DNA of 64,000 nucleotides from Lentisphaerota bacterium. Its GTDB lineage: Bacteria; Verrucomicrobiota; Kiritimatiellia; Kiritimatiellales; Pontiellaceae. The stretch spans positions 3,015 through 67,014 of the forward strand of contig JAAYDL010000060.1 in the NCBI GenBank assembly GCA_012729265.1, in the 5' to 3' direction. The notes under the pieces were generated by a model. That model saw only the letters and a program-made list of their open reading frames with translations, did not search any database and had not been told where the DNA came from. This document shows positions 7,230-55,470 of this stretch, piece by piece (position 1 is the stretch's first letter; each line of letters begins with the position of its first letter). The translations under genes and the position numbers were made by a program.

Positions 7230-8027
7230 CTAAATATCCAAAAGAGAAGCGCCGTCTGTTCCGCGGAATCCGCTTCCTGTAGAAGGAGTTAACGATGGCG
7301 TTGTGGTGGTGCGGGGCGTCGTACTCCGGATTGGCGAAACGCTCGACGGAGCAGAAGAACTTCCCGACGAGGTCGACCAAGCAGATGATGATGACGGCGA
7401 AAGCCCCGGCGTTGTAGTGCGGGTTGCACCCGGAGCGCCCGCCGTGGTTCCGGACATCGGGCTTCCCAGTGAATTCAGGGAACCTAATGCAGACGGGGAC
7501 GCTGGTTGCGGTTGCGAAAACGAAGAATATCCGGACGAATAGGCAGAACCACTAGAAGCACCAGAAGAGTAAGGGGATAAACCGTAGGCAGAGGAAGGAC
7601 TGCGCTCTGTGCTGCGGGTGCGCTGAGCATCCATCAGTCGCTGCCAGTTATCATCCAGCTTTTGCCGCCGCAGGTCCGCCGCGGTCATATCAGAATCCGA
7701 CGTTTCGCCGAACAGGCCGTATTCTTCTTCGGTCTCTTCAAAGCCTGTTGCCCGACGAACGGGTGCACCCGATGGCCGACGAACCATTCCGGAGCCCGCA
7801 GCCAGACTTTCGTTGGAACTCGCTTTAAACCCCGGGTCTCGTCCCAAAGGGTCTTCGTCCGGATCATCCGGCAGCTCCAGATTTAACTGAACGACCTCCT
7901 GCTGCTCAAAAAGATATTTACGCTCAATCCGCAGTTTTCGCTCTTCGCGTGTTTCCGCCGACACCGTGGTGCACATCAAAGGAGCAACGAGGCCAACAAC
8001 CCATAAAATCCGTATAATTCCGTTCAT
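7230..8027 (-). CDS. Exported hypothetical protein with Ser/Thr/Pro-rich low-complexity C-terminus
   Basis: Signal-peptide-like start MNGIIRILWVVGLVAPLMCTTVSA; long S/T/P/G-rich tail. Confidence 0.7.
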   Translation of the reverse strand: MNGIIRILWVVGLVAPLMCTTVSAETREERKLRIERKYLFEQQEVVQLNLELPDDPDEDPLGRDPGFKASSNESLAAGSGMVRRPSGAPVRRATGFEETEEEYGLFGETSDSDMTAADLRRQKLDDNWQRLMDAQRTRSTERSPSSAYGLSPYSSGASSGSAYSSGYSSFSQPQPASPSALGSLNSLGSPMSGTTAGAPGATRTTTPGLSPSSSSAWSTSSGSSSAPSSVSPIRSTTPRTTTTPSLTPSTGSGFRGTDGASLLDI

Positions 8028-42452: not shown

Positions 42453-43538
42453 ATGTTATACGACGTACCCGTACATTTAGGTGAGCGCTCCTATCGCATT
42501 ACGATTGGAGCGGGAATTATGGACACCCTCGGCCCGCGCTGTTCCGAGGTTGGACTGAAGGGCAAGTGTCTGATTATTACCGACGAAAACGTCGGCGGAT
42601 TATATGCCAAAACGGCCAAGCGATCGCTGGAGGCCGCCGGTTTTTCGGCGGCGCTGGAGACGCTTCCGGCGGGCGAGCAGACGAAATGCGGCGAGCAGGT
42701 GTTTAAGCTCTACAGCCGCTGCGTGGAGGCGGGGCTGGACCGCAAATCGTTCATTGTCGCACTCGGCGGCGGCGTGATGGGCGATCTGGCGGGCTATGTG
42801 GCGGCCACCTATTTGAGAGGCATTCCGTTTGTTCAGGTGCCGACCTCGCTGCTGGCGATGGTCGACAGCTCGGTGGGCGGAAAGACCGGGGTGAATCTGC
42901 CGGAGGGAAAAAATCTGGTCGGCGCATTTTATCAGCCCGAGCTGGTGCTGGCTGATCTGGAGACGCTCCGCACGCTTCCGCAGCGCGAATACCGCGCCGG
43001 GCTGGCCGAGGTAGTGAAATACGGCATTATTTATGACGCACCGTTTTTTGCGCTGCTGGAGGAAAACATTGCTCCGCTCGCGGATGTAGAAAATACAGAG
43101 CTGCTGGCCAAGGTGGTCGGACGCTGCTGCGAAATTAAGGCCGAGGTGGTGGCGCAGGATGAACGCGAAGGCGGACTGCGCGCGATTCTGAACTTCGGCC
43201 ATACGGCGGGTCACGCGCTGGAAAAGGTGGCGGGCTACGGCGAATATGTACACGGTGAAGGCGTCGCAATCGGCTCCGTTTTTGCCGCGCGCGCCTCGGT
43301 GGCGCTGACGGGACTTGCTCAGGCGGAGTGCGATCGGATTGAGCAACTGTTTGCGAATCTCGGTTTGCCGGTCCGCGCACCGGAATACGGCTGGGCCGAT
43401 TTGCGGGCGGCGTTGTCGGTCGATAAAAAAACCGTCGGCGGCATGCCCAAGTTTGTACTCGCCTCGGCCATCGGAACGGTTTCGTTCGGGGAAGAGGTTC
43501 CCGAGGAGCTAATGGAAACAATCTGGAAAAAATTATAA
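42453..43538 (+). CDS. aroB: 3-dehydroquinate synthase
   Basis: ALGGGVMGDLAG, PTSLLAMVDSSVGGKTG, LNFGHTAGHALE, HGEGVAIG. Confidence 0.97.
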   Translation: MLYDVPVHLGERSYRITIGAGIMDTLGPRCSEVGLKGKCLIITDENVGGLYAKTAKRSLEAAGFSAALETLPAGEQTKCGEQVFKLYSRCVEAGLDRKSFIVALGGGVMGDLAGYVAATYLRGIPFVQVPTSLLAMVDSSVGGKTGVNLPEGKNLVGAFYQPELVLADLETLRTLPQREYRAGLAEVVKYGIIYDAPFFALLEENIAPLADVENTELLAKVVGRCCEIKAEVVAQDEREGGLRAILNFGHTAGHALEKVAGYGEYVHGEGVAIGSVFAARASVALTGLAQAECDRIEQLFANLGLPVRAPEYGWADLRAALSVDKKTVGGMPKFVLASAIGTVSFGEEVPEELMETIWKKL

Positions 43539-43599
43539 CCACGGAAGACACCGAATACACAGAAAGTTGAGTTCCGTGTGTTCGGTGTATTCTGTGGTT
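43537..43599. repeat. 9-mer-periodic hairpin starting in the aroB stop codon
   Basis: AACCACGGAAGACACCGAATACACAGAA ... TTCCGTGTGTTCGGTGTATTCTGTGGTT (28-nt arms). Confidence 0.85.
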
Positions 43600-43607
43600 C
43601 AATCACA

Positions 43608-44738
43608 ATGCAGGATCGTGAAGCATATATTGTTCTGAATATGATCGACGGGCTGGGGCCGGTGAGCGTCCGGCGGCTGGTCGAGCGCCTCGGAACACCC
43701 AAAGCGATTCTGGAAGCCGACCGCGATACGCTGATGGAAGCGCATGGCGTCGGCGAAAAAATGGCGCTCAAGATTATCGTTCAGCGCGATCAACTCGACC
43801 CCGAGACCGAGATTAATAAGGCGGCCGACGAGGGGGCGCGGATTATCACGCAGCTGGACGATGAATATCCCGAGGCGCTGAAGAGCATTCATGATCCGCC
43901 GCTGGCACTCTATGTGCGCGGATCGCTGCTGCCGAGCGATGCCAAGGCGCTGGGCATTGTCGGCTCGCGTTCAACCAGCCATTACGGCTTGTCCGCTGCA
44001 GATCGGCTGGCCTATCAGCTGGCGCAGACGGGCTTTACGGTGGTGAGCGGACTGGCGCGCGGAACGGATACAGCGGCGCACAGCGGAGCACTTAAAGGCA
44101 AGGGCCGAACGATTGCGGTGCTCGGCGGTGCGATCGACTGCCTCTACCCGCCGGAGAATGACGGGCTGGCGGCCAAGATTGCCAACCACGGCGCAGTGAT
44201 CAGCGAATACCCGATGGGGCGGCAGGTGGATCGAATGACGTTTCCGTACCGAAACCGTATTATCAGCGGGCTGAGCATGGGCGTGCTGCTGATTGAATCG
44301 ACCGTGAAAGGCGGCTCAATGCATACGATCGATGCCGCGATGGAACAGGGCCGAACCGTCTTTGCACTGCCGGGGCGAATTGATATGCCCGGCGCACGCG
44401 GCCCGCATCGTTTGATTAAAAACGGCGCAAAATTAGTTGAATCGCTGGACGATATTTTGGAGGAGTTTGAGTTTTTGATTCCTGAAGCGGAGCGTCAGGC
44501 GCCGGCGGCGGAGACCGCAGCGCGGCCCGACGTGCCGTTGACGGAGGCGGAAACTAAAATTGTAGAAGCGCTCTGGGGCGAGGCACTCGACGTCGACTCG
44601 CTGGCGCGCGCGGTTGGGATGAAAAGCTACGAACTCAGCGGACTGCTGCTGGGCCTCGAAATGAAACGCGTAGTCTGTATGCGCCCCGGCCGGATGGTTG
44701 AACTGGCGGATGATTTAAGAACAGGATTTAGGAGCTAA
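43608..44738 (+). CDS. dprA: DNA-processing protein DprA
   Basis: IHDPPLALYVRG, IVGSR, VSGLARGTD, FPYRNRIISG, C-terminal winged helix. Confidence 0.95.
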   Translation: MQDREAYIVLNMIDGLGPVSVRRLVERLGTPKAILEADRDTLMEAHGVGEKMALKIIVQRDQLDPETEINKAADEGARIITQLDDEYPEALKSIHDPPLALYVRGSLLPSDAKALGIVGSRSTSHYGLSAADRLAYQLAQTGFTVVSGLARGTDTAAHSGALKGKGRTIAVLGGAIDCLYPPENDGLAAKIANHGAVISEYPMGRQVDRMTFPYRNRIISGLSMGVLLIESTVKGGSMHTIDAAMEQGRTVFALPGRIDMPGARGPHRLIKNGAKLVESLDDILEEFEFLIPEAERQAPAAETAARPDVPLTEAETKIVEALWGEALDVDSLARAVGMKSYELSGLLLGLEMKRVVCMRPGRMVELADDLRTGFRS

Positions 44739-44804
44739 CCACGAAATACACAAAATACACGAAACAGGTGGATGGTTTTCGTGTGGTTCGTGTCTTTCGT
44801 GGTT
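44737..44804. repeat. 9-mer-periodic hairpin starting in the dprA stop codon
   Basis: AACCACGAAATACACAAAATACACGAAA ... TTTCGTGTGGTTCGTGTCTTTCGTGGTT. Confidence 0.85.
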
Positions 44805-44824: not shown

Positions 44825-47377
44825 ATGAGCAAAAATTTGGTAATTGTGGAATCGCCGGCAAAGGCGAAGACGATCGGTAAATATTTAGGCAAGGACTATA
44901 CGGTGATGGCCTCGGTGGGCCACGTACGCGACCTGCCGCAAAAAACGCTGGGCGTGGATGTGGAGAAAAATTTTGAGCCGGAATATGTCAGCACGACGCG
45001 CGGAAAAACGGTGCTGAAGGAGCTCAAGGCAGAAGCCAAAAAATGCGAAAAGGTATTCCTCGCGCCTGACCCGGACCGCGAAGGAGAAGCGATTGCCTGG
45101 CACCTTTTTGAAGCGCTGAAAAAGACGGTTCCGGAAGAAAACTTTTACCGCGTGACCTATAATGAAATTACGAAATCAGCGATTCTGTCGGCGTTTGAGC
45201 AGCCGCGTAAGATTGATATGAACCGCGTAAACGCGCAGCAGGCGCGGCGCGTGCTCGACCGCTTGGTCGGCTTCCAAGGCAGCCCGGTGGTGCGCAAGCA
45301 GATCCGCGGCGCACAGAGCGTTGGACGCGTGCAGACGGTGGCGCTGCGGTTGGTCGTTGAGCGCGAGAAGGAGATTGAAGGGTTTACGCCGGAAACCTAT
45401 TTTTCCGTCGGCGCCGAGGTCCGCAAACAGGAAGCGCCGCTCGATCCCTTCATCGTAAAGCTGGCGCGCATCAACGAAGAGCCGGTCGGCATCAAGGACC
45501 GCAAGCTCCTTCCGGGCGCGGTTAAAACAAAGGAGCAGCTCGAAGCGATGCAGCGCGAGCTGAAAACCAGCACGCTCAAGGTGAGCGATGTCTATACCAA
45601 ACAGGTCACCCGCCGGGCGCGCGCGCCGTTCATTACCAGCACACTGCAGCAGTCGGCCTCGGGATCGCTCAGCCTCGCGCCGGCGCGTACGATGAGCATT
45701 GCGCAGAAGCTTTATGAAGCAGGATTGATCACCTACATGCGTACCGATTCGTTCAACATTGCGCAGTCGGCGCTCGCCGAAGTACGCGATTTTATCCGCG
45801 AAAATTATGGCGCGGAATATCTGCCGGAAAAGCCCAATTACTATAAGAGCAAGGGCGCCGCACAGGAAGCCCACGAGGCGATCCGCCCAACCGATGTTTC
45901 CGTGGTGCCCGGAAACGAAGGCGTTAAACTCGATGCGGCGGAGCAGAAACTCTACCGCCTGATCTGGGAACGCTTCACCGCCTGCCAGATGGTACCCGCC
46001 AAGATTGATCGGCGCACGGTAGAAGTCGAAGCCGGCACAGAAAACAGCTATCTATTCCGCGCAACCGCCTCCGAAATTACCTTCCCCGGATATATGCGCG
46101 CCAGCGGCATCGAGGCCGCCGCCGATGCCCCCAAAAACGGCGAGAGCGACGAAGCAGAAACCGATGCCCTGCCGCCGCTGACGAAAGGGGAACCGCTCGA
46201 CGTGCTGAACTGGCTGGCGGAGCAGAAAGAAACCAATCCGCTGCCGCGCTATTCTGAGGCTTCGCTCATCCGCGCCCTGGAAGAAAACGGCGTCGGACGC
46301 CCGAGTACATACGCCGCCATTATGTCCAAGCTCGACGAGCGCGAATATGTTCTGAAGGAAAAGCGGTCGCTCATTCCGACCGAGCGCGGCAAAGAGCTGA
46401 TCGATCTGGTGCTCAAAACCGAGGCCAAGTTAAAATCGTCGAACAAGGTAGATCTGTTTGAAACGCATTTCACCGCCGATATGGAAACCCGGCTCGACCA
46501 TATTGAAGAGGGGAAGATCGAGTGGACGGAAATGATGCAGGGCTTTTACCCCTCCCTGCTCGAATGGATCGAACACGCCAAAGAGACCGCCGACCCCGGA
46601 ATGGTGGGAAAATGCTTCCAGGCGCTGGATCATGTGAGCGAATGGATGCCCCCCGTTAAATCCGGACGCCGTACGTACGACGACCAAAAAACCTTTGAAG
46701 ACCTCAGAGGAAAGGTCAACGGCGGCGAGCTGCTTTCCAAACGCCAAGGCGAAATGCTCCACAAAATGTGCTGCCGCTATATTCAGCAGATTCCCGATGC
46801 CCTCTCGAAAGAGCTGGAGCTGGTCGAACCCGAGGCCGTGCGCTCGGACACGCCCGAAAAGCTGGAGCTGCTTGCACGGGTTAAGTTTGATGAGCCGCGC
46901 AAGGTCGGGAAACGCACCTACGACGATAAAAAGTTCTGCACTTCGCTCAGCGATCAGATTGCTTTGGGCAAACGCCTGAGCGAGCGTCAGCTCGATTATC
47001 TCGACACAATGCTGACCAAATATTCCGAGCAGATCCCCGACTTCGATGCCGTAAAGGCCAAGTTTAAGCTCGGCGAAAAGAAAGAGGTCGTGGCCGATCC
47101 CTCTACCGCACCGCTACTGGCCTTGATGCAGCACGTCCGTGTATGGGCCGAACCGACCAAACGCGGCAACCGCGAGTTTAACGATAAAAGCTTCTTTGAA
47201 TCGCTCGCCGCGCAGTTTAAGTCCAAGGGTGCCCTTTCGGACCGTCAGATCGCCGCGCTCAAAAAGATGGCCGCGCGTTACGCCGACCAGATCCCGAACT
47301 ATGCACAGATGCAGGATCAGCTCGGCCTCCTCGCGCCCCGAAAACCAAAAGCCAAAAAGGAAGCTTCAGCCGAATAA
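44825..47377 (+). CDS. topA: DNA topoisomerase I with an atypical C-terminal repeat region
   Basis: IVESPAKAKTI, DPDREGEAIA, GRVQTVAL, ITYMRTDS, AHEAIRPT, GVGRPSTYA. Confidence 0.97.
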   Translation: MSKNLVIVESPAKAKTIGKYLGKDYTVMASVGHVRDLPQKTLGVDVEKNFEPEYVSTTRGKTVLKELKAEAKKCEKVFLAPDPDREGEAIAWHLFEALKKTVPEENFYRVTYNEITKSAILSAFEQPRKIDMNRVNAQQARRVLDRLVGFQGSPVVRKQIRGAQSVGRVQTVALRLVVEREKEIEGFTPETYFSVGAEVRKQEAPLDPFIVKLARINEEPVGIKDRKLLPGAVKTKEQLEAMQRELKTSTLKVSDVYTKQVTRRARAPFITSTLQQSASGSLSLAPARTMSIAQKLYEAGLITYMRTDSFNIAQSALAEVRDFIRENYGAEYLPEKPNYYKSKGAAQEAHEAIRPTDVSVVPGNEGVKLDAAEQKLYRLIWERFTACQMVPAKIDRRTVEVEAGTENSYLFRATASEITFPGYMRASGIEAAADAPKNGESDEAETDALPPLTKGEPLDVLNWLAEQKETNPLPRYSEASLIRALEENGVGRPSTYAAIMSKLDEREYVLKEKRSLIPTERGKELIDLVLKTEAKLKSSNKVDLFETHFTADMETRLDHIEEGKIEWTEMMQGFYPSLLEWIEHAKETADPGMVGKCFQALDHVSEWMPPVKSGRRTYDDQKTFEDLRGKVNGGELLSKRQGEMLHKMCCRYIQQIPDALSKELELVEPEAVRSDTPEKLELLARVKFDEPRKVGKRTYDDKKFCTSLSDQIALGKRLSERQLDYLDTMLTKYSEQIPDFDAVKAKFKLGEKKEVVADPSTAPLLALMQHVRVWAEPTKRGNREFNDKSFFESLAAQFKSKGALSDRQIAALKKMAARYADQIPNYAQMQDQLGLLAPRKPKAKKEASAE

Positions 47378-47416
47378 CTATTCAACAGAAGACCGCAAAG
47401 ATCGCGAAGAGTAAAA

Positions 47417-48040
47417 ATGAGCGCAGAAAACAGATTCGACCAGGCCGCAGAAGAGTGGGATTCGTTAGAGCCGCGCAAAAAGATGATCCGCGCGATCAGC
47501 GAGCGCATGTTTGAGCGCCTCCCGCTCAACGCCGAAATGGACGTACTCGACTTTGGCTGCGGAACCGGGCTGCTCTCGTTGCGGGTTGCCGATCAGGTAA
47601 AATCGCTGACGGGCATCGACACCTCATCCGGTATGCTCAACACGTTTGAGCAAAAAGCAACGCAGATGGGCCTGAAAAATACGCAGACACAGTGGCTGGA
47701 TCTGACACAGAAGATGGAGATTCCGGGGCAATATGACCTGATCGTCAGCAGCATGGTTTTCCATCACGTCAAGGAGTTGAACCCCGTGCTCGTTCTCCTC
47801 CACCGCGCACTGAAACCCGAAGGTCAACTCTGCATTGCCGATCTGGATCTCGATGGAGGCCTCTTCCACGAAAATGCGGTCGATGTCTTTCACAACGGAT
47901 TCGACCGCAAGGCCTTCGCCGAAGCACTGAAAACCGCCGGCTTCTCAGCGGTTGAAGTGACCGACGCCACCTCCATCACCAAACCCGTCGGCGATGAACT
48001 TCGGTCATTCTCCATCTTCCTCGCAACAGGAGAAAAATAA
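47417..48040 (+). CDS. Class I SAM-dependent methyltransferase
   Basis: VLDFGCGTG, GIDTS, YDLIVSSMVFHH, LKPEG. Confidence 0.9.
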   Translation: MSAENRFDQAAEEWDSLEPRKKMIRAISERMFERLPLNAEMDVLDFGCGTGLLSLRVADQVKSLTGIDTSSGMLNTFEQKATQMGLKNTQTQWLDLTQKMEIPGQYDLIVSSMVFHHVKELNPVLVLLHRALKPEGQLCIADLDLDGGLFHENAVDVFHNGFDRKAFAEALKTAGFSAVEVTDATSITKPVGDELRSFSIFLATGEK

Positions 48041-48146
48041 ACACCAAGCCACAAAGATCCTAAAGCATACCCTTCGCGACCTTTGCGTCCTTCTGTAAAA
48101 AAAATCAGTGTCCATTAGTGTTAATCAGTGGTTCAAAAATTCCGAC

Positions 48147-49100
48147 ATGAACGATCCGTGCATAGAACATTTTGTGAACTATCTCGAAGGCGAAAAAAAC
48201 GCCTCCGACCATACGATACAAAACTATCTCCTCGACATCCGGCAGTTCTGCGAAATCACCTGGGGAGAAAACGCACAGCCGCCCTACCCATGGAGCCGCA
48301 CCGACCGCTTTTCCGCCCGTAAATTTCTCGTCTTCTTCCAGAAACTCGAAATGGCCCCCACCACCACCGCACGCAAGCTCTCCGCCCTGCGCTCCTTTTA
48401 TAAATTTCTCCTGCGCGAAGAATATGTGGAGCAAAACCCCTTCAGCGGACTCAGCCTGCCGAAAAAGGGCGACTATCTCCCCCAGATTCTCTCTGTAGCG
48501 GAAGTCGGCAAACTGCTCGACGCCCCCGCCGAGTATGAGCAACAGCAGAACACCGTCGATCCGCTGCTGAAAATGTGGCGCGAATATAGGGTCGCCCGCG
48601 ACTCCGCCATCCTCGAAATGCTCTACTCCACCGGCATGCGCATCAACGAACTCGCCAAACTGCCCGAAACCCAGATCGACCTCCTCGCCGGCGTGGCACG
48701 CGTCCGCGGAAAAGGCAAAAAAGAGCGACTCTGCCCCCTCGGCGCCCCCGCCATACGCGCCCTCCAGAAAAACCTCGAACTGCGCGAAAACGTCTGGCTG
48801 ATCTCCGGTAAACGCGAAGCACGCAGCCCCGTCTTTCTCAACAAAAATGGAGGCGCCATCACCGCCCGTTCCATTGAGCGCATGATGAAAAAATATGTCC
48901 TCTTCTGCGGACTCAACGCCGAGCTCACACCGCACAGCCTACGCCACAGCTTTGCCACCCATCTCCTCGACGCCGGGGCCGACCTGCGCAGCGTACAGGA
49001 ACTCCTCGGCCACGCCTCCCTCTCCACCACACAAATCTACACCCACGTCTCCATCGAACGCATAAAAGAAGTCTACCAGCTCGCCCACCCAAGAGCCTGA
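48147..49100 (+). CDS. xerC: Tyrosine recombinase XerC
   Basis: ARKLSALRSF, LYSTGMRINE, GKGKKER, TPHSLRHSFATHLL, LGHASLSTTQIY; dprA-topA-xerC synteny. Confidence 0.9.
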   Translation: MNDPCIEHFVNYLEGEKNASDHTIQNYLLDIRQFCEITWGENAQPPYPWSRTDRFSARKFLVFFQKLEMAPTTTARKLSALRSFYKFLLREEYVEQNPFSGLSLPKKGDYLPQILSVAEVGKLLDAPAEYEQQQNTVDPLLKMWREYRVARDSAILEMLYSTGMRINELAKLPETQIDLLAGVARVRGKGKKERLCPLGAPAIRALQKNLELRENVWLISGKREARSPVFLNKNGGAITARSIERMMKKYVLFCGLNAELTPHSLRHSFATHLLDAGADLRSVQELLGHASLSTTQIYTHVSIERIKEVYQLAHPRA

Positions 49101-49221: not shown

Positions 49222-49298
49222 GCAGCCATAGCTCAATTGGATAGAGCACCTGACTACGAATCAGGAGGTTGCAGGTTCGATTCCTGCTGGCTGCGCCA
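49222..49298 (+). tRNA. tRNA-Arg (ACG)
   Basis: Acceptor GCAGCCA/TGGCTGC + G-CCA; D-arm AGCTCAATTGGATAGAGC; anticodon stem CCTGA-CTACGAA-TCAGG; T-loop GGTTCGATTCC. Confidence 0.97.
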
Positions 49299-49488: not shown

Positions 49489-49730
49489 GCCCATCGCCCA
49501 CCCCATTTTTGTAACAAAATTTGCATCGAGCGCTTTCAGCATCTAAAGCGCTTCTTCTCCCTGTACCACTCACCACGCGTTAATTTTGTAAACCTTTCAA
49601 ACATCAGTAAACCGTGGCGGCTAATAGTTCAGATTGTTTCACCGCGGGCTTTAACTCATTGATAAAATGGCGTAAAAAGTCCCCTTCATTGCAAAACAGC
49701 ATCAAAAACGGTTTCAAAATAAGGGTGAGT

Positions 49731-52034
49731 ATGGATCAGGCAACGCATAACAAGATTGTTTCTTTCATCTGGGGAATTGCGGACGATGTGTTGCGCGACC
49801 TTTTCAAGCGGGGTAAATACCCGGATGTGATTCTGCCGATGTGCGTGATCCGTCGCATGGACGCTGTGCTGGAGCCGACCAAGCAGGCGGTGCTGGATGC
49901 CAAGAAGATGCTGGACTCGGCGCAGATCACGGAACAGCGGGCCGCGTTGTGCAGTGCGGCCGGTCAGGCGTTTTACAACACATCCAAGTTTACCCTGCGC
50001 GATCTGAAGTCGCGCGGCAGCCAACAGCAACTGCTGGCCGATTTTGAGGATTACCTGAACGGATTCTCCCAGAACGTTCAGGACATTATTGAAAACTTTA
50101 AGTTTCGGAATCAGATTCCGACGCTGTCCAAGGCCGATGCGCTGGGCACCTTGATCAACAAATTTCTCGACCCGGAAATCGATCTTACGCCAGCAGGCAT
50201 CGACAATCATGCCATGGGCACGGTCTTTGAAGAGCTGGTGCGCAAGTTTAACGAGGAAAACAACGAAGAGGCCGGTGAGCACTGGACGCCGCGCGATGCC
50301 GTGCGGCTGATGGCCAACCTGATTTTCCTGCCGATACAGGATCAGCTCAGGTCCGGTTCCTATCTGCTGTATGACTGTGCTTGCGGAACCGGCGGTATGC
50401 TGACCGTGGCCGAAGAAACGCTGGCGGAGATCGGGAAAAAGCATGGGCTGGAGATTCGCAGCCATTTGTACGGGCAGGAGATCAACCCGGAAACCTATGC
50501 GATCTGCAAAGCCGACATGCTGCTGAAAGGCGAGGGCGAAAATGCCGACCATATTGTCGGCGGCGCGGAGTGGTCGACGCTCGCGCACGATGCCTTCCCG
50601 GCGCAGGAATTCGACTTCATGCTTGCCAATCCTCCCTATGGGAAGAGCTGGAAAAAAGATCTGGAGACGATGGGCGGAAAAGACGGCATGAACGATCCGC
50701 GCTTCAAGGTGATGCATCAGGGAGAAGAACTCTCTTTGATCACTCGCTCCAGCGATGGGCAAATGCTGTTCCTGGCCAACATGGCGTCCAAGATGAACGA
50801 TCAGTCGGCGCTGGGCAGTCGCATTGCCGAGGTGCATAACGGCAGCTCGCTCTTTACCGGCGATGCCGGGCAGGGCGAAAGCAACATCCGCCGCTGGCTG
50901 ATCGAAAACGACCAGGTTGAGGCCATTGTGGCCTTGCCGCTCAACCTCTTCTACAACACCGGCATTGCCACCTATGTCTGGGTGCTGACTAACCGCAAGC
51001 CGGAGCATCGCAAGGGCAAGGTGCAGCTCATCGACGCCTCGCAATGGTTCAAGCCACTGCGCAAAAACCTCGGCAAAAAGAACTGCGAACTGTCACCGGA
51101 TGACATCGACCGTATCTGCAAAACATTTTTGGATTTCGAAGAAACCGAGCAGTCAAAAATCTTCCCCAACGAACATTTCGGTTACTGGAAGGTGCGCGTT
51201 GAGCGCCCCGTCCGCCTGCACAGCCAGTTGACGCGCAAGGCGATTGAAACCCTGCGCTTTGCATCCGGCGACGAAGAGTTGCGCACCGAACTCCACGCCC
51301 GATTTGGTGAAAAACTGTTCAGCGGGTTTGCTGAGGTGGAGGCCGAAGTGGCGCGGTTTTTGTCCGACATGTCCGACGGGGATGACGATTCAGAGGAAGA
51401 AGAAACCCAAAAAGGCCTGCCCGAGAAGCGGAAGAAAAAGCTGCTCGACGCCAAAACCTGGGAGCGCGACGGTCGGCTGGCTGAGACCGCCGAGCTGCTG
51501 CGCGACCGGTTGGGCGACGCTCTCTTCGAGGATTTCAACCTTTTCCGCGAGGCGGTAGCAAAGGTACTCAAGGCCGAAGGCGTCAAGCTGCCCGCCGCCG
51601 ATCTCAAGCTGATACTACGCACCGTGAGCTGGCGGGTGGAGAATGCTCCGCCGGTCATTGATAAATTTCTAAAGGAAGAACCGGATGTTCTGTACGGTCG
51701 CTATCCGCTTTCGGTTTTGAGTCAATCGGAAATCAGCAATCGGAAATCGGCAATCCGAAGCGTCAGCTTTGAGCCTGAAACCGACCTGCGCGACCACGAG
51801 CAGGTGCCGCTGCTCGAAGAGGGCGGCATCGAAGCCTTTATCCGCCGCGAGGTGCTGCCCTACACGCCGGATGCCTGGGTTGATCCCTCCGCCACCAAGA
51901 TCGGCTACGAAGTCAGCTTTACCCGCCACTTCTACAAGCCGCCGGAACTGCGGTCGCTCGAAGCCATCGCCGCCGACATCAAGGCGCTTGAAAACGAGAC
52001 CGAGGGACTGCTCGAAGAGATTGTGGGAGGTTGA
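49731..52034 (+). CDS. hsdM: Type I RM methyltransferase subunit
   Basis: FIWGIADDVLR, GEHWTPR, YDCACGTGGML, GQEIN, LANPPYG, FYNTGIATY. Confidence 0.95.
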   Translation: MDQATHNKIVSFIWGIADDVLRDLFKRGKYPDVILPMCVIRRMDAVLEPTKQAVLDAKKMLDSAQITEQRAALCSAAGQAFYNTSKFTLRDLKSRGSQQQLLADFEDYLNGFSQNVQDIIENFKFRNQIPTLSKADALGTLINKFLDPEIDLTPAGIDNHAMGTVFEELVRKFNEENNEEAGEHWTPRDAVRLMANLIFLPIQDQLRSGSYLLYDCACGTGGMLTVAEETLAEIGKKHGLEIRSHLYGQEINPETYAICKADMLLKGEGENADHIVGGAEWSTLAHDAFPAQEFDFMLANPPYGKSWKKDLETMGGKDGMNDPRFKVMHQGEELSLITRSSDGQMLFLANMASKMNDQSALGSRIAEVHNGSSLFTGDAGQGESNIRRWLIENDQVEAIVALPLNLFYNTGIATYVWVLTNRKPEHRKGKVQLIDASQWFKPLRKNLGKKNCELSPDDIDRICKTFLDFEETEQSKIFPNEHFGYWKVRVERPVRLHSQLTRKAIETLRFASGDEELRTELHARFGEKLFSGFAEVEAEVARFLSDMSDGDDDSEEEETQKGLPEKRKKKLLDAKTWERDGRLAETAELLRDRLGDALFEDFNLFREAVAKVLKAEGVKLPAADLKLILRTVSWRVENAPPVIDKFLKEEPDVLYGRYPLSVLSQSEISNRKSAIRSVSFEPETDLRDHEQVPLLEEGGIEAFIRREVLPYTPDAWVDPSATKIGYEVSFTRHFYKPPELRSLEAIAADIKALENETEGLLEEIVGG
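51724..51758 (+). repeat. Heptamer tandem repeat (AATCGGA-like x5) inside the hsdM coding sequence
   Basis: AATCGGA AATCAGC AATCGGA AATCGGC AATCCGA, read through as QSEISNRKSAIRS. Confidence 0.8.
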
Positions 52035-53261: not shown

Positions 53262-54679
53262 TCGCCGACCTTAAACCCTATCCTGAATACAAAGACTCCG
53301 GCCTGCCGTGGGTGGAAGAACTCCCACAAGGTTGGATTGTTCGGCGCGGACGTGGGGTTTTTGAATCGATCGATGTTCGGTCGAAGACGGGAAAAGAAGA
53401 ACTGCTCACTGTGTCATCACAGGACGGCGTTCGGCTGCGCAGTTCAAAAGCTGTTACAATGTTTCAGGCCAAGTCCTATGTGGGGCATAAGCTTTGTTGG
53501 CCGGGTGACCTTGTGGTCAACAGCTTGTGGGCATGGGCAACCGGGCTTGGATTTTCGCGGCACTATGGAATTGTGAGTACGGCCTATGGGGTTTATCGAC
53601 CGCGAGATGAGCATAAAGCAAAGTGGCGTTTCCTCGATTATTTATTGCGAAGCTATGCATACAAGTGGGAGTTCCAAACACGGTCGCGCGGGATTTGGAT
53701 ATCCCGACTCCAGCTAACGGATTGGTATTTTTTTGATATGCCGATCCTTTTGCCGCCTGAAGAAGATGCGGAAGCGATTGTGCGTTTTTTGGATCATGCG
53801 AATGCGAAGATTGACCGCTATGTGCGGGCGAAGAAAAAGCTGATCAAACTGCTCAACGAGCAGAAGCAGGCCATCATCCACCGTGCCGTCACCCGCGGCC
53901 TCGATCCGAATGCCCCCCTCAAAGACTCCGGCATCCCAATGCTCGGCCAGATTCCGGACGACTGGAAAACGATCCCAATTAAGCGCGTTGCAACTGTATT
54001 GAATGGGTTTGCTTTTTCGAGCGAGATCTACACCGATTCTGGGGTACCGCTCATTCGTATTGGAGATGTGAAGAGCAGCGGTACTGTTGATATTGAACAC
54101 GCTGTGAAGTTGCCGGGAGGTTTCTTGGCTTCTCATTCGTTCGTCGAAATCAAGAATGGCGACCTTGTGATGGCAATGACAGGAGCGACAATCGGAAAGG
54201 TGGCCAAATACAGCCATGACTGCCCTTCACTTCTAAACCAGCGTGTTTGTGCATTTCGTTGCCTATCTGGACGAGTGGTGCAGGAATACCTTTTTCTTCT
54301 GCTCTCATCCCAGTTGTATCTTCAGCAGGTGCTGATGGCATGCTACGGCGGTGCTCAACCTAACATTTCGGACACAACTTTAGCAGGTTTTAAGATGCCA
54401 ATAGCTCCATTCGATCTTCAAAAAGAAATCGTTTCCTCTGTGGTTCGCGAGACTCGCAGTTTAACCGCCGCCATCACCCACGCTGAGCGCGAGATCGAGC
54501 TATTGAACGAATACCGGACGCGGCTGGTGGCGGATGTGGTGACGGGCAAGCTGGATGTGCGCGAGGCGGCGGAGGTGTTGCCGGAGGAGCTGGTTGTGGA
54601 GTCGGACGGGGCGGACTCGACGGACGAAACCGACTTGTCCGATGATGCCGACGAAGTTTTACAGGAGGAGGAGTCATGA
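53258..54679 (+). CDS. hsdS: Type I RM specificity subunit
   Basis: LKPYPEYKDSGLPW; two TRDs joined by IVRFLD..AKID...LLNEQKQAIIHRAVTRGL; LLNEYRTRLVADVVTGKLDVR. Confidence 0.93.
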   Translation: MIADLKPYPEYKDSGLPWVEELPQGWIVRRGRGVFESIDVRSKTGKEELLTVSSQDGVRLRSSKAVTMFQAKSYVGHKLCWPGDLVVNSLWAWATGLGFSRHYGIVSTAYGVYRPRDEHKAKWRFLDYLLRSYAYKWEFQTRSRGIWISRLQLTDWYFFDMPILLPPEEDAEAIVRFLDHANAKIDRYVRAKKKLIKLLNEQKQAIIHRAVTRGLDPNAPLKDSGIPMLGQIPDDWKTIPIKRVATVLNGFAFSSEIYTDSGVPLIRIGDVKSSGTVDIEHAVKLPGGFLASHSFVEIKNGDLVMAMTGATIGKVAKYSHDCPSLLNQRVCAFRCLSGRVVQEYLFLLLSSQLYLQQVLMACYGGAQPNISDTTLAGFKMPIAPFDLQKEIVSSVVRETRSLTAAITHAEREIELLNEYRTRLVADVVTGKLDVREAAEVLPEELVVESDGADSTDETDLSDDADEVLQEEES

Positions 54680-55470
54680 GCGCTCCGGGAAGTCCGCTGA
54701 TGCCGCATGGCGGGTATGAAAAGCTGCGGGCGTACCGGGTGGCGGAAGTGGTGTATGACGCAACGGTGGTGTTCTGCGACCGGTTCATTGATAAGCGGTC
54801 GCGCACGCACGACCAGATGGTGCAGGCGGCGCGCAGCGGCGTACGCAATATCAGCGAGGGCAGCGGCGCGGGGGCGACGTCGAAGAAGACGGAGATCCAT
54901 CTGACGAATGTGGCGCGGGCGAGCCTGTCGGATGAGCTGCTGAAGGATTATCGAAGTTTTCTGGTGCAGCGCGGTCTGCCGGTTTGGGATAAGGATTCAC
55001 CGAGGGCGCTGGCGATGCGGGAGCGGCTGCAACACGAGGAGGTGGACCGCCTTCCGCCGGAGAGAGAGGGCGTTGTGCGTCTGACGGGGCTGAATGGTCT
55101 GACCGATTTTGTGGCCAAGGCGTCGCCGGAGCTGGCGGCGAATGCGATGCTGTGCGCGGTAAATCAGGCGGCCTATCTGCTGCGTCGGCTGATGGAGCAG
55201 CAGACGCAGGAGTTTGTGGAGGGCGGCGGTTTTACGGAGCGGCTTTATACAGCGCGGACGCAGGCGCGTGCCGCCGGGGCGGCCGATGCGCCGACCTGCC
55301 CGCTGTGCGGCGAGGCGATGCGAAAACGGACGGCGGGCAAGGGCGCAAATGCGGGAAAAGCGTTCTGGGGCTGCACCGGCTATCCGGCGTGCAGGGGAGT
55401 AGTAAATATTTCTGAAAAGACTGACGTGTCCGACCCGCCCGACCGATCTAACGATGGAGAGAAAGCATGA
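54676..55470 (+). CDS. Four-helix-bundle protein with suffix domain and C4 zinc finger
   Basis: HGGYEKL, DQMVQAARSGVRNISEG, LTNVARASL.ELL.DY, EGGGFTERLY..R, CPLCG...FWGCTGYPACRG. Confidence 0.9.
   Translation: MSAPGSPLMPHGGYEKLRAYRVAEVVYDATVVFCDRFIDKRSRTHDQMVQAARSGVRNISEGSGAGATSKKTEIHLTNVARASLSDELLKDYRSFLVQRGLPVWDKDSPRALAMRERLQHEEVDRLPPEREGVVRLTGLNGLTDFVAKASPELAANAMLCAVNQAAYLLRRLMEQQTQEFVEGGGFTERLYTARTQARAAGAADAPTCPLCGEAMRKRTAGKGANAGKAFWGCTGYPACRGVVNISEKTDVSDPPDRSNDGEKA

Follow-up and report, generated by a model that had tools for sequence, protein, structure and literature searches.

How an ordinary gene comes to lie between the two halves of an inverted repeat is the question raised by a methyltransferase gene (MT) that separates topA from xerC in a 64,000-nucleotide stretch of DNA (hereafter the window; contig JAAYDL010000060.1 of assembly GCA_012729265.1, positions 3,015 to 67,014) from a member of the Pontiellaceae (Kiritimatiellota), the 3.4 Mb genome of which is referred to as G000. 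A preliminary description, made from the letters of the window, had viewed MT as a cassette captured in the loop of a periodic hairpin. The comparison with relatives suggests instead, as the reading that we consider probable, that the two arms are halves of two adjacent, gene-less copies of one periodic hairpin family, and not a single hairpin that was entered by a gene. One copy would have stood at the 3'-end of topA and the other at the 3'-end of MT, which itself has resided in the dprA-topA-MT-xerC cluster since the early days of the Pontiellaceae. With X and Y denoting arms and l and r their left and right position, the ancestor of G000 and its relatives L045 and L047 would have had the layout topA-[Xl-loop-Yr]-MT-[Yl-loop-Xr]-xerC, from which a 54-nt deletion on the way to G000 would have taken Yr, the right arm of the first hairpin; Xl would thus have been left with Xr of the downstream element as its best partner. 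The hairpins are dispersed repeats turning over far faster than the surrounding genes, and mobility of MT at the level of DNA would not be involved.

Inverted arms on either side of the methyltransferase gene

MT (47417..48040, + strand) encodes a class I S-adenosylmethionine (SAM)-dependent methyltransferase of 207 residues, which matches Methyltransf_23/25/11 and, when compared with the NCBIfam equivalogs, none at or above its cut-off. A left spacer of 39 nt separates its ATG at 47417 from the topA stop codon (47377), and a right spacer of 106 nt extends from its own stop codon (48040) to the ATG of xerC (48147). The two 16-mers that first drew attention to the locus are indeed present at 47394-47409 and 48072-48087 and match at 15 of 16 positions; they extend to an inverted repeat with 29-nt arms, complementary at 25 of 29 positions and located 654 nt apart. 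The left arm, Xl (47385..47413, + strand; ACAGAAGACCGCAAAGATCGCGAAGAGTA), begins 7 nt past the topA stop codon, finishes 3 nt short of the MT start codon and consists of three 9-nt units (ACAGAAGAC CGCAAAGAT CGCGAAGAG), the 9-mer structure ascribed to it being real; we take Xl to be the remaining 5' half of an upstream hairpin, H1. The right arm, Xr (48068..48096, + strand; TACCCTTCGCGACCTTTGCGTCCTTCTGT), appears to be the 3' half of a downstream hairpin element which is itself a member of a dispersed repeat. The degenerate left arm of this element, Yl (48040..48065, + strand; AACACCAAGCCACAAAGATCCTAAAG), begins within the MT stop codon, at its final base, and repeats the Xl region in direct orientation at 75%. 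Xr is followed by a run of eight A and an orphan array of three 10-nt units (48097..48133, + strand; ATCAGTGTCC ATTAGTGTTA ATCAGTGGTT), the partner arm of which is absent nearby and which travels with Xr elsewhere in the genome as one composite repeat. Direct repeats were not found at the outer arm ends, where the flanks read ctattca and aaaaaaaa.

Chance complementarity of two short spacers deserves next to no credence, only the low-complexity, purine-rich make-up of the units speaking for it. The probability of at least 25 matches in 29 over all placements in both spacers is ~6e-9, and in a census of inverted repeats flanking the 2,488 open reading frames (ORFs) of G000, where the best scores have a median of 7 and a 99th percentile of 11, MT scores 19.0 and takes rank 7; L045 and L047 moreover carry the same arms. 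Chance was rejected on account of the probability and the census rank.

The nearest relatives are represented by five contigs with an MT that is 86-90% identical to that of G000. In L047 and L045, the order upstream of MT is topA-TAA-ctattc-[Xl AACAGAAG..CGCGAAGAGG]-ATTC-[Yr TTTGCG..CCTTGGTGTT], and downstream of MT one reads TAA-[Yl AACACCAA..CTAAAG]-loop-[Xr CTTCGCGACCTTTGCGTCCTTCTGTT]-AAAAAG, that is, MT has a hairpin-like unit on either side. The upstream Xl-ATTC-Yr hairpin folds with -31.5 kcal/mol in L047 and -17 kcal/mol in L045. The layout of G000 equals that of L047 and L045 minus 54 nt bearing Yr, with a topA-MT spacer of 39 nt as opposed to 93 nt (L047) and 179 nt (L045), and given the MT tree we infer that the loss in G000 is a derived deletion.

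Further exchanges of hairpins are seen in other relatives. L043, which is nested inside the clade in the MT tree, has a different hairpin upstream of MT and an intact Xl-62 nt-Xr hairpin located entirely downstream; yet another hairpin occupies that position in L044. The shared core of Xr recurs unchanged in L047 and L043. In the sister lineage L073, MT is located between two hairpins of one, different, period-7 family. These layouts indicate that spacer hairpins are replaced much faster than genes change and that the two hairpins flanking MT tend to come from the same family. The view of MT as a ‘filled’ hairpin finds no support in the unit present on each side in L047 and L045 or in the hairpin with the same arms that stands beside MT in L043.

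The methyltransferase gene and the topA-xerC junction in relatives

Orthologues of MT are found between topA and xerC in at least ten Pontiellaceae lineages, several of which are without arms. The order topA-MT-xerC was read directly in G002, G006, G009, L043, L045 and L073, and partial orders up to contig ends in L044 (dprA-topA-MT) and L047 (topA-MT); among the same-genus genomes with topA and xerC on one contig, MT lies between both genes in G000, G002, G006 and G009. The Pontiellaceae proteins form one clade (support 100/98) apart from their homologues in Desulfobacterota, Nitrospira and Methanocella, and the MT and XerC trees agree where they are resolved, the groupings (L043,(G000,L045)) and G002+P0019 being recovered in both. 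When compared with L043, the sequence identities are 95% for XerC, 91% for TopA and 86% for MT, and when compared with G006 they are 84% for XerC and 54% for MT; MT thus diverges 2-3 times faster than XerC at short and long range alike, with a steady ratio. The G+C content at third codon positions (GC3) is 0.683 for MT and 0.67-0.72 for its neighbours, and MT is single-copy in G000, the next-best paralogue being 32% identical. Recent horizontal acquisition of MT is ruled out by GC3 and the trees, and the history of the gene fits vertical descent from one early gain, with losses thereafter. In G002 and G006 the spacers around MT measure 3-45 nt and arms are lacking, so that arms are not needed for MT; in G009 a weak hairpin follows the gene.

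It had also been stated that MT interrupts topA-xerC synteny, and an empty hairpin at the junction in relatives had been named as a finding that would support capture. Both are borne out: in most relatives topA and xerC are adjacent or separated only by a hairpin, and eight MT-less genomes of the same genus, the spacers of which were read (G011, G017, G012, G007, G010, G005, G018 and G014), hold a hairpin in a topA-xerC spacer of 83-122 nt. Each has one long hairpin, clearly periodic in seven of the eight and weaker in G014, and the units vary from genome to genome (CACGAAG, CGCAAAG and ACGGAAT types). A XerC-guided search of the genome collection for an MT-less close relative returned none at 85-94% identity.

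The topA|xerC junction of another family within the order is occupied by unrelated accessory genes (L034 2439-3482, L027 378-1502, L030 2556-3925, L032 2473-3940), among them a KilA-N-like gene, a RhuM-like gene together with an ankyrin-repeat ORF, a pair of unknown ORFs, and a nuclease-like small ORF next to a TPR-like one. Periodic arms were looked for at these inserts and none were found. The junction is hence variable across the order, though not in a way linked to arms, which are lacking both at these inserts and around MT in G002 and G006.

These observations bear directly on whether MT was captured after all. In a true cassette capture, a process operating without a transposase would have inserted MT, along with the Y arms next to it, into an X hairpin whose loop was already present in the topA-xerC spacer, e.g., by recombination between two hairpin sites with Xl|Yr and Yl|Xr as the resulting hybrid junctions, and the same process would place four-helix-bundle and GxxExxY genes (see below) between periodic arms. 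We regard this as improbable. The eight MT-less relatives with an empty, in seven cases clearly periodic, hairpin at the junction are what capture would lead one to expect, and it is likewise favored by (i) the exactly cross-complementary terminal 9-mers of the Xl-Yr...MT...Yl-Xr layout, (ii) the census rank of MT alongside genuine cassettes, (iii) the resemblance of the arm units (CGCRAAG, period 9) to those of GxxExxY cassettes on contigs C314 (gene at 7684-8007) and C354 (gene at 2168-2545) as well as in G001 and G010, and (iv) the variability of the junction across the order, with KilA-N-like, RhuM-like and other inserts in another family. However, orthologues without arms occupy the same site in G002 and G006, MT of L043 stands beside an intact X hairpin and not inside it, and MT is monophyletic, of native composition and has a tree that agrees with that of XerC. 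Furthermore, the supposed hybrid of an AACACCAAG-type left arm and an CCTTCTGT-type right arm also exists as a single unit on contig C379, and the inserts in the other family are devoid of periodic arms. Neither joints of excised or empty forms nor MT-less contigs were found in four DNA and four RNA metagenome runs (of more than 20 containing the stretch), a search of contigs which rare forms would escape.

For MT, the proposal of cassette capture thus largely falls, in that the gene is ancestral at this site and the arms are confined to the species group of G000 and lacking in G002 and G006. Gene and arms have not been gained or lost as one unit, as would be expected for an element of the intervening-sequence type. 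For the hairpin class as such the proposal holds up better, as both empty hairpins and hairpins enclosing four-helix-bundle or GxxExxY genes exist. A companion case put forward for a four-helix-bundle gene in the hsd operon of the window (54601-55443) could not be upheld, with a PF05635 score of 25.7 bits against a cut-off of 33.8 bits and no inverted repeat above background. The broader proposition that phased-repeat hairpins are insertion sites or vehicles of a transposase-less system whose usual cargo is four-helix-bundle or GxxExxY genes, with MT being the first ordinary gene (re-)captured by it through two-hairpin recombination, strikes us as quite doubtful; were it true, Xl|Yr and Yl|Xr would be recombination junctions and the single hairpin of the MT-less relatives would be the empty site.

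Dispersed hairpins and the small genes that they enclose

That the arms belong to a dispersed family, as the two-hairpin reading has it, is seen within G000 itself. Near-identical copies of Xr are located at C379:922-946 (1 mismatch) and C271:6942-6966 (2 mismatches), two looser copies are found on C306, and the A-run and the downstream three-unit array accompany the copies on C379 and C271 and, more loosely, on C306. Xr thus has the multiple near-identical intergenic copies in one genome that characterize repeats of the REP/BIME type (see below). At C379, an AACACCAAG-type left arm, as seen at Yl, is joined to an Xr-type right arm, and because a single unit of that kind is present there, the hybrid hairpin with AACACCAAG on the left and CCTTCTGT on the right is a variant of the family rather than a junction left by recombination. 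When complemented, Xl agrees with its own Xr at 22 of 25 positions and the copies at C379 and C271 at 21 of 25; hence pairing is a property of the family and not of the locus. Many other metagenome contigs match just 48071-48138.

Overall, 125 local hairpins that do not overlap and have arms of 20 nt or more were counted in G000. In many of them the arms repeat every 7-10 or 14-15 nt, most are located between co-directional genes, and about half begin within ~15 nt of a stop codon. Of 12 hairpin pairs with a distance of 150-3,000 nt, 5 share a family, compared with 3% of random pairs (p=5e-5). In the window, the dprA|topA spacer holds an intact, gene-less hairpin of another family with period 9 (44737..44804, + strand; AACCACGAAATACAC...), and the hairpin in the aroB|dprA spacer (43537-43599) is of the same AACCAC...GTGGTT period-9 family; each begins on or beside a stop codon.

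The closest parallel to these features is provided by repetitive extragenic palindromes (REP) and bacterial interspersed mosaic elements (BIME), which go along with REP-associated tyrosine transposases (RAYT; REPINs of E. coli and Pseudomonas). They are likewise dispersed, intergenic, hairpin-forming repeats at the 3'-ends of cistrons, form mosaics with other units, are species-specific in sequence, turn over rapidly and show clustering of same-family copies; unlike theirs, the arms described here are tandem arrays of 7-10-nt units. Eight Y1_Tnp matches were detected in G000, none of which is linked to a periodic hairpin family. Two Y1-transposase (RAYT-like) matches, C178:45319-46241 and C212:1175-2224, lie amid arrays of non-periodic REP-like palindromes, and this looks like the classical REP/RAYT arrangement, distinct from the periodic hairpins.

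Genuine enclosure of genes by periodic arms does occur in the genome. All nine strong PF05635 four-helix-bundle genes of G000 are found between inverted arms of period 7, as are two to three of the four PF13366 GxxExxY genes between arms of period 8-10; the armed genes are located on contigs C76, C160, C273, C146, C135, C314, C121, C60, C222 and C354, and examples are trpE|GxxExxY|trpG and guaA|four-helix-bundle|carB. In the two PF13366 genes with clear arms, the units measure 8-10 nt and are CGCAAAG-like, and the MT pair belongs to this GxxExxY-associated type. At guaA|carB (C121:26069-26511 in G000, outside the window; relatives read in L049, L050, L053, L058, L061 and L063), a four-helix-bundle gene is present in two genomes (G000, G011) and a GxxExxY gene in two others (G001, G010); the hairpin of G002 is periodic and empty, that of G014 has a loop of 119 nt, and G004 shows the arm type of G000, with no ORF of at least 90 aa found. 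The sequence of the arms differs from genome to genome, with complementarity and periodicity being kept.

The architecture of these four-helix-bundle and GxxExxY cassettes is that of the ORF-bearing intervening sequences (IVS) of 23S rRNA (helix 45 of Coxiella burnetii, Leptospira; S23p ORF), in which terminal inverted repeats form a stem of ~28 bp inside a longer transcript, with a small gene in its loop (PMC4990558). The MT locus, with a 29-bp stem and a 654-nt loop, matches this architecture superficially: MT encodes a SAM methyltransferase and not a PF05635 or PF13366 protein, and hence does not belong to the IVS families, the locus is an mRNA operon spacer with arms of phased 9-nt units, and MT predates its arms and is also found in their absence. 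A precedent for nuclease genes bracketed by repeats is offered by the Ssn nucleases of Neisseria, which are framed by the dispersed NTS repeats that they recognize (PMC11893778); this bears on the GxxExxY cassettes, which share the arm type of MT, although the GIY-YIG fold of Ssn is a different one and the NTS repeats are not phased. A literature search for the cassette class outside rRNA returned nothing beyond papers on IVS, on diversity-generating retroelements (DGR/Avd) and on Ssn, and the class appears to be sparsely represented in print (23S rRNA IVS, Ssn/NTS, REP/RAYT).

Two established mobile systems were considered and rejected. Integron cassettes resemble the locus in that a promoterless gene with a hairpin-forming imperfect inverted repeat lies beside a tyrosine recombinase gene. 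However, there is no IntI and no attC layout here: the recombinase is the housekeeping XerC (126.6 bits with the integron-integrase model, the cut-off of which is 265 bits), the arms are on both sides of the gene instead of forming one 3' attC, and there is neither an array nor an attI. Mobile insertion cassettes and miniature inverted-repeat transposable elements (MITEs), mobilized in trans, share the inverted repeats around a non-transposase passenger gene, but the unit of MT and arms is single-copy and lacks a target-site duplication, and MT has remained at one locus across lineages.

Pairing of the distant arms and its consequences

Several findings weigh against the reading of the arms as halves of two neighboring hairpins. 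First, no other pairing in the three genomes is as strong as the Xl:Xr duplex (-36.6, -40.8 and -34.8 kcal/mol). Xl pairs better with Xr than with the local Yr, whereas Yl:Xr, with -5.7 kcal/mol in G000 and -5 to -9 kcal/mol across the three genomes, is barely a hairpin, and Xr therefore acts as though its true partner were Xl. Second, the terminal 9-mers complement each other crosswise without a mismatch (AACAGAAGG with CCTTCTGTT, and AACACCAAG with CTTGGTGTT), as a nested or integration-type origin would predict. Third, the arms of G000 and L047 differ at 2 of 58 positions, compared with 31% at four-fold sites (p ~2e-7), and must therefore be constrained or homogenized; constraint on long-range pairing is one possible reason. 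Fourth, exactly one hairpin is present at the site in the MT-less relatives, and the XerC tree is star-like, so that gains and losses of MT cannot be counted. Finally, the RNA evidence given below consists of assembled contigs only. An inversion between two hairpin loops was considered as well and set aside, as it predicts left arms that are direct copies of each other instead of the cross-complementary terminal 9-mers observed.

Part of this evidence would be accommodated if the split arrangement were itself selected, with the Xl:Xr stem being a functional RNA element for which the arms are conserved. RNase III cleavage would then excise or insulate the MT cistron, as in 23S rRNA IVS, or the stem would gate MT translation. 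We consider this explanation unlikely. In its favor, Xl:Xr outranks the other pairings in the three genomes, with the local partner arms decaying or lost by deletion, the arms have changed far less than four-fold sites, and the minimum-energy and centroid folds of 47370-48140 both include the MT-enclosing stem (z=-3.9), which has the length of at least ~20 bp expected of an IVS stem around its ORF. Xl ends just 3 nt ahead of the MT ATG, RNase III is known to cut the 28-bp stems of IVS (PMC4990558), and in a wastewater metatranscriptome one contig of 2,097 nt (46014-48110) spans the 3' part of topA, Xl and MT and stops 14 nt past the right arm. Another RNA run yielded pieces across both arms and little on xerC, which is sparsely covered in any RNA run. 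Nevertheless, compensatory changes are absent among the three genomes, and the two changes in Xr of L045 restore no pair, one breaking an A-T pair and the other leaving a mismatch. The non-pairing Yl and the orphan array are conserved equally to the arms, i.e., conservation is not specific to pairing. Moreover, L043, though nested in the clade, has a local X hairpin instead, and a stem is lacking altogether in more distant lineages that carry MT.

The conservation of non-pairing arms could also point to a role in double-stranded DNA, with the arms acting as phased sites of ~9 bp for a sequence-specific protein, possibly of the GxxExxY type or another repeat-reading protein, and their symmetry reflecting the mode of binding. 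The period of 9-10 nt is near one helical turn, and Ssn with its NTS repeats is a precedent of small nucleases framed by recognized repeats (PMC11893778). In addition, the orphan-array units (48104-48133) read CAGTG or TAGTG in G000 versus CCGTG in all three units of L045 (1160-1200); these tandem units seem to have changed in concert, as if co-evolving with a reader. No candidate binding protein was identified, however, and across the class arms stay complementary in spite of wholly different sequence at the same junction, which speaks for pairing and not for a fixed motif. We consider sites of this kind highly improbable.

If the arms are halves of two neighboring hairpins, the stem would be a side consequence of the lost local partner arm. 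On the basis of folding, Xl and Xr would form a 29-bp stem (-36.6 kcal/mol) in the topA-MT transcript that closes the entire MT cistron, and this stem would resemble the RNase III substrate formed by the intervening sequences of 23S rRNA. We propose that such a stem would probably reduce the translation of MT or lead to processing of the mRNA, and would shield a 3'-end located just downstream. The folds of 47370-48140 and, more weakly, the metatranscriptome contig that stops 14 nt past the right arm speak for this reading as well.

The gene order around the locus is dprA-topA-MT-xerC, and the assignments of aroB and dprA as well as of topA (DNA topoisomerase I; 44825..47377, + strand), the gene upstream of MT, were confirmed. 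The product of xerC (48147..49100, + strand) is a housekeeping tyrosine recombinase of the XerC type, scoring 309 bits with the XerC model, and its start is at 48147 and not at 48108, as shown by the conserved MNDPC start in relatives. XerC identity across the genus is 81-85%, and topA-xerC synteny holds across the order. On the + strand of the spacers, neither a sigma-70 promoter nor an intrinsic terminator was found. An Rfam scan assigned no family to any hairpin, the sole match being a tRNA gene (49222-49295), which lies 3' of xerC and 5' of type I restriction-modification genes (hsdM 49614-52034).

For this locus the result is mainly corrective: what looked like a gene in a hairpin loop would be two adjacent repeat copies and a deletion around a pre-existing gene. 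Same-family hairpins cluster, and surveys of hairpin-bracketed genes will therefore yield false cassettes. Beyond that, operon junctions of the Pontiellaceae such as topA|xerC and guaA|carB turn out to be places where hairpin sequence turns over at a far higher rate than that of the genes on either side, with complementarity and phasing being kept, and where one and the same junction may be empty or hold either of two unrelated small genes. Finally, loss of a local partner arm would have brought an ordinary cistron into an IVS-like RNA stem, and MT of G000 may thus offer a natural test of the effect that such a stem has on expression.

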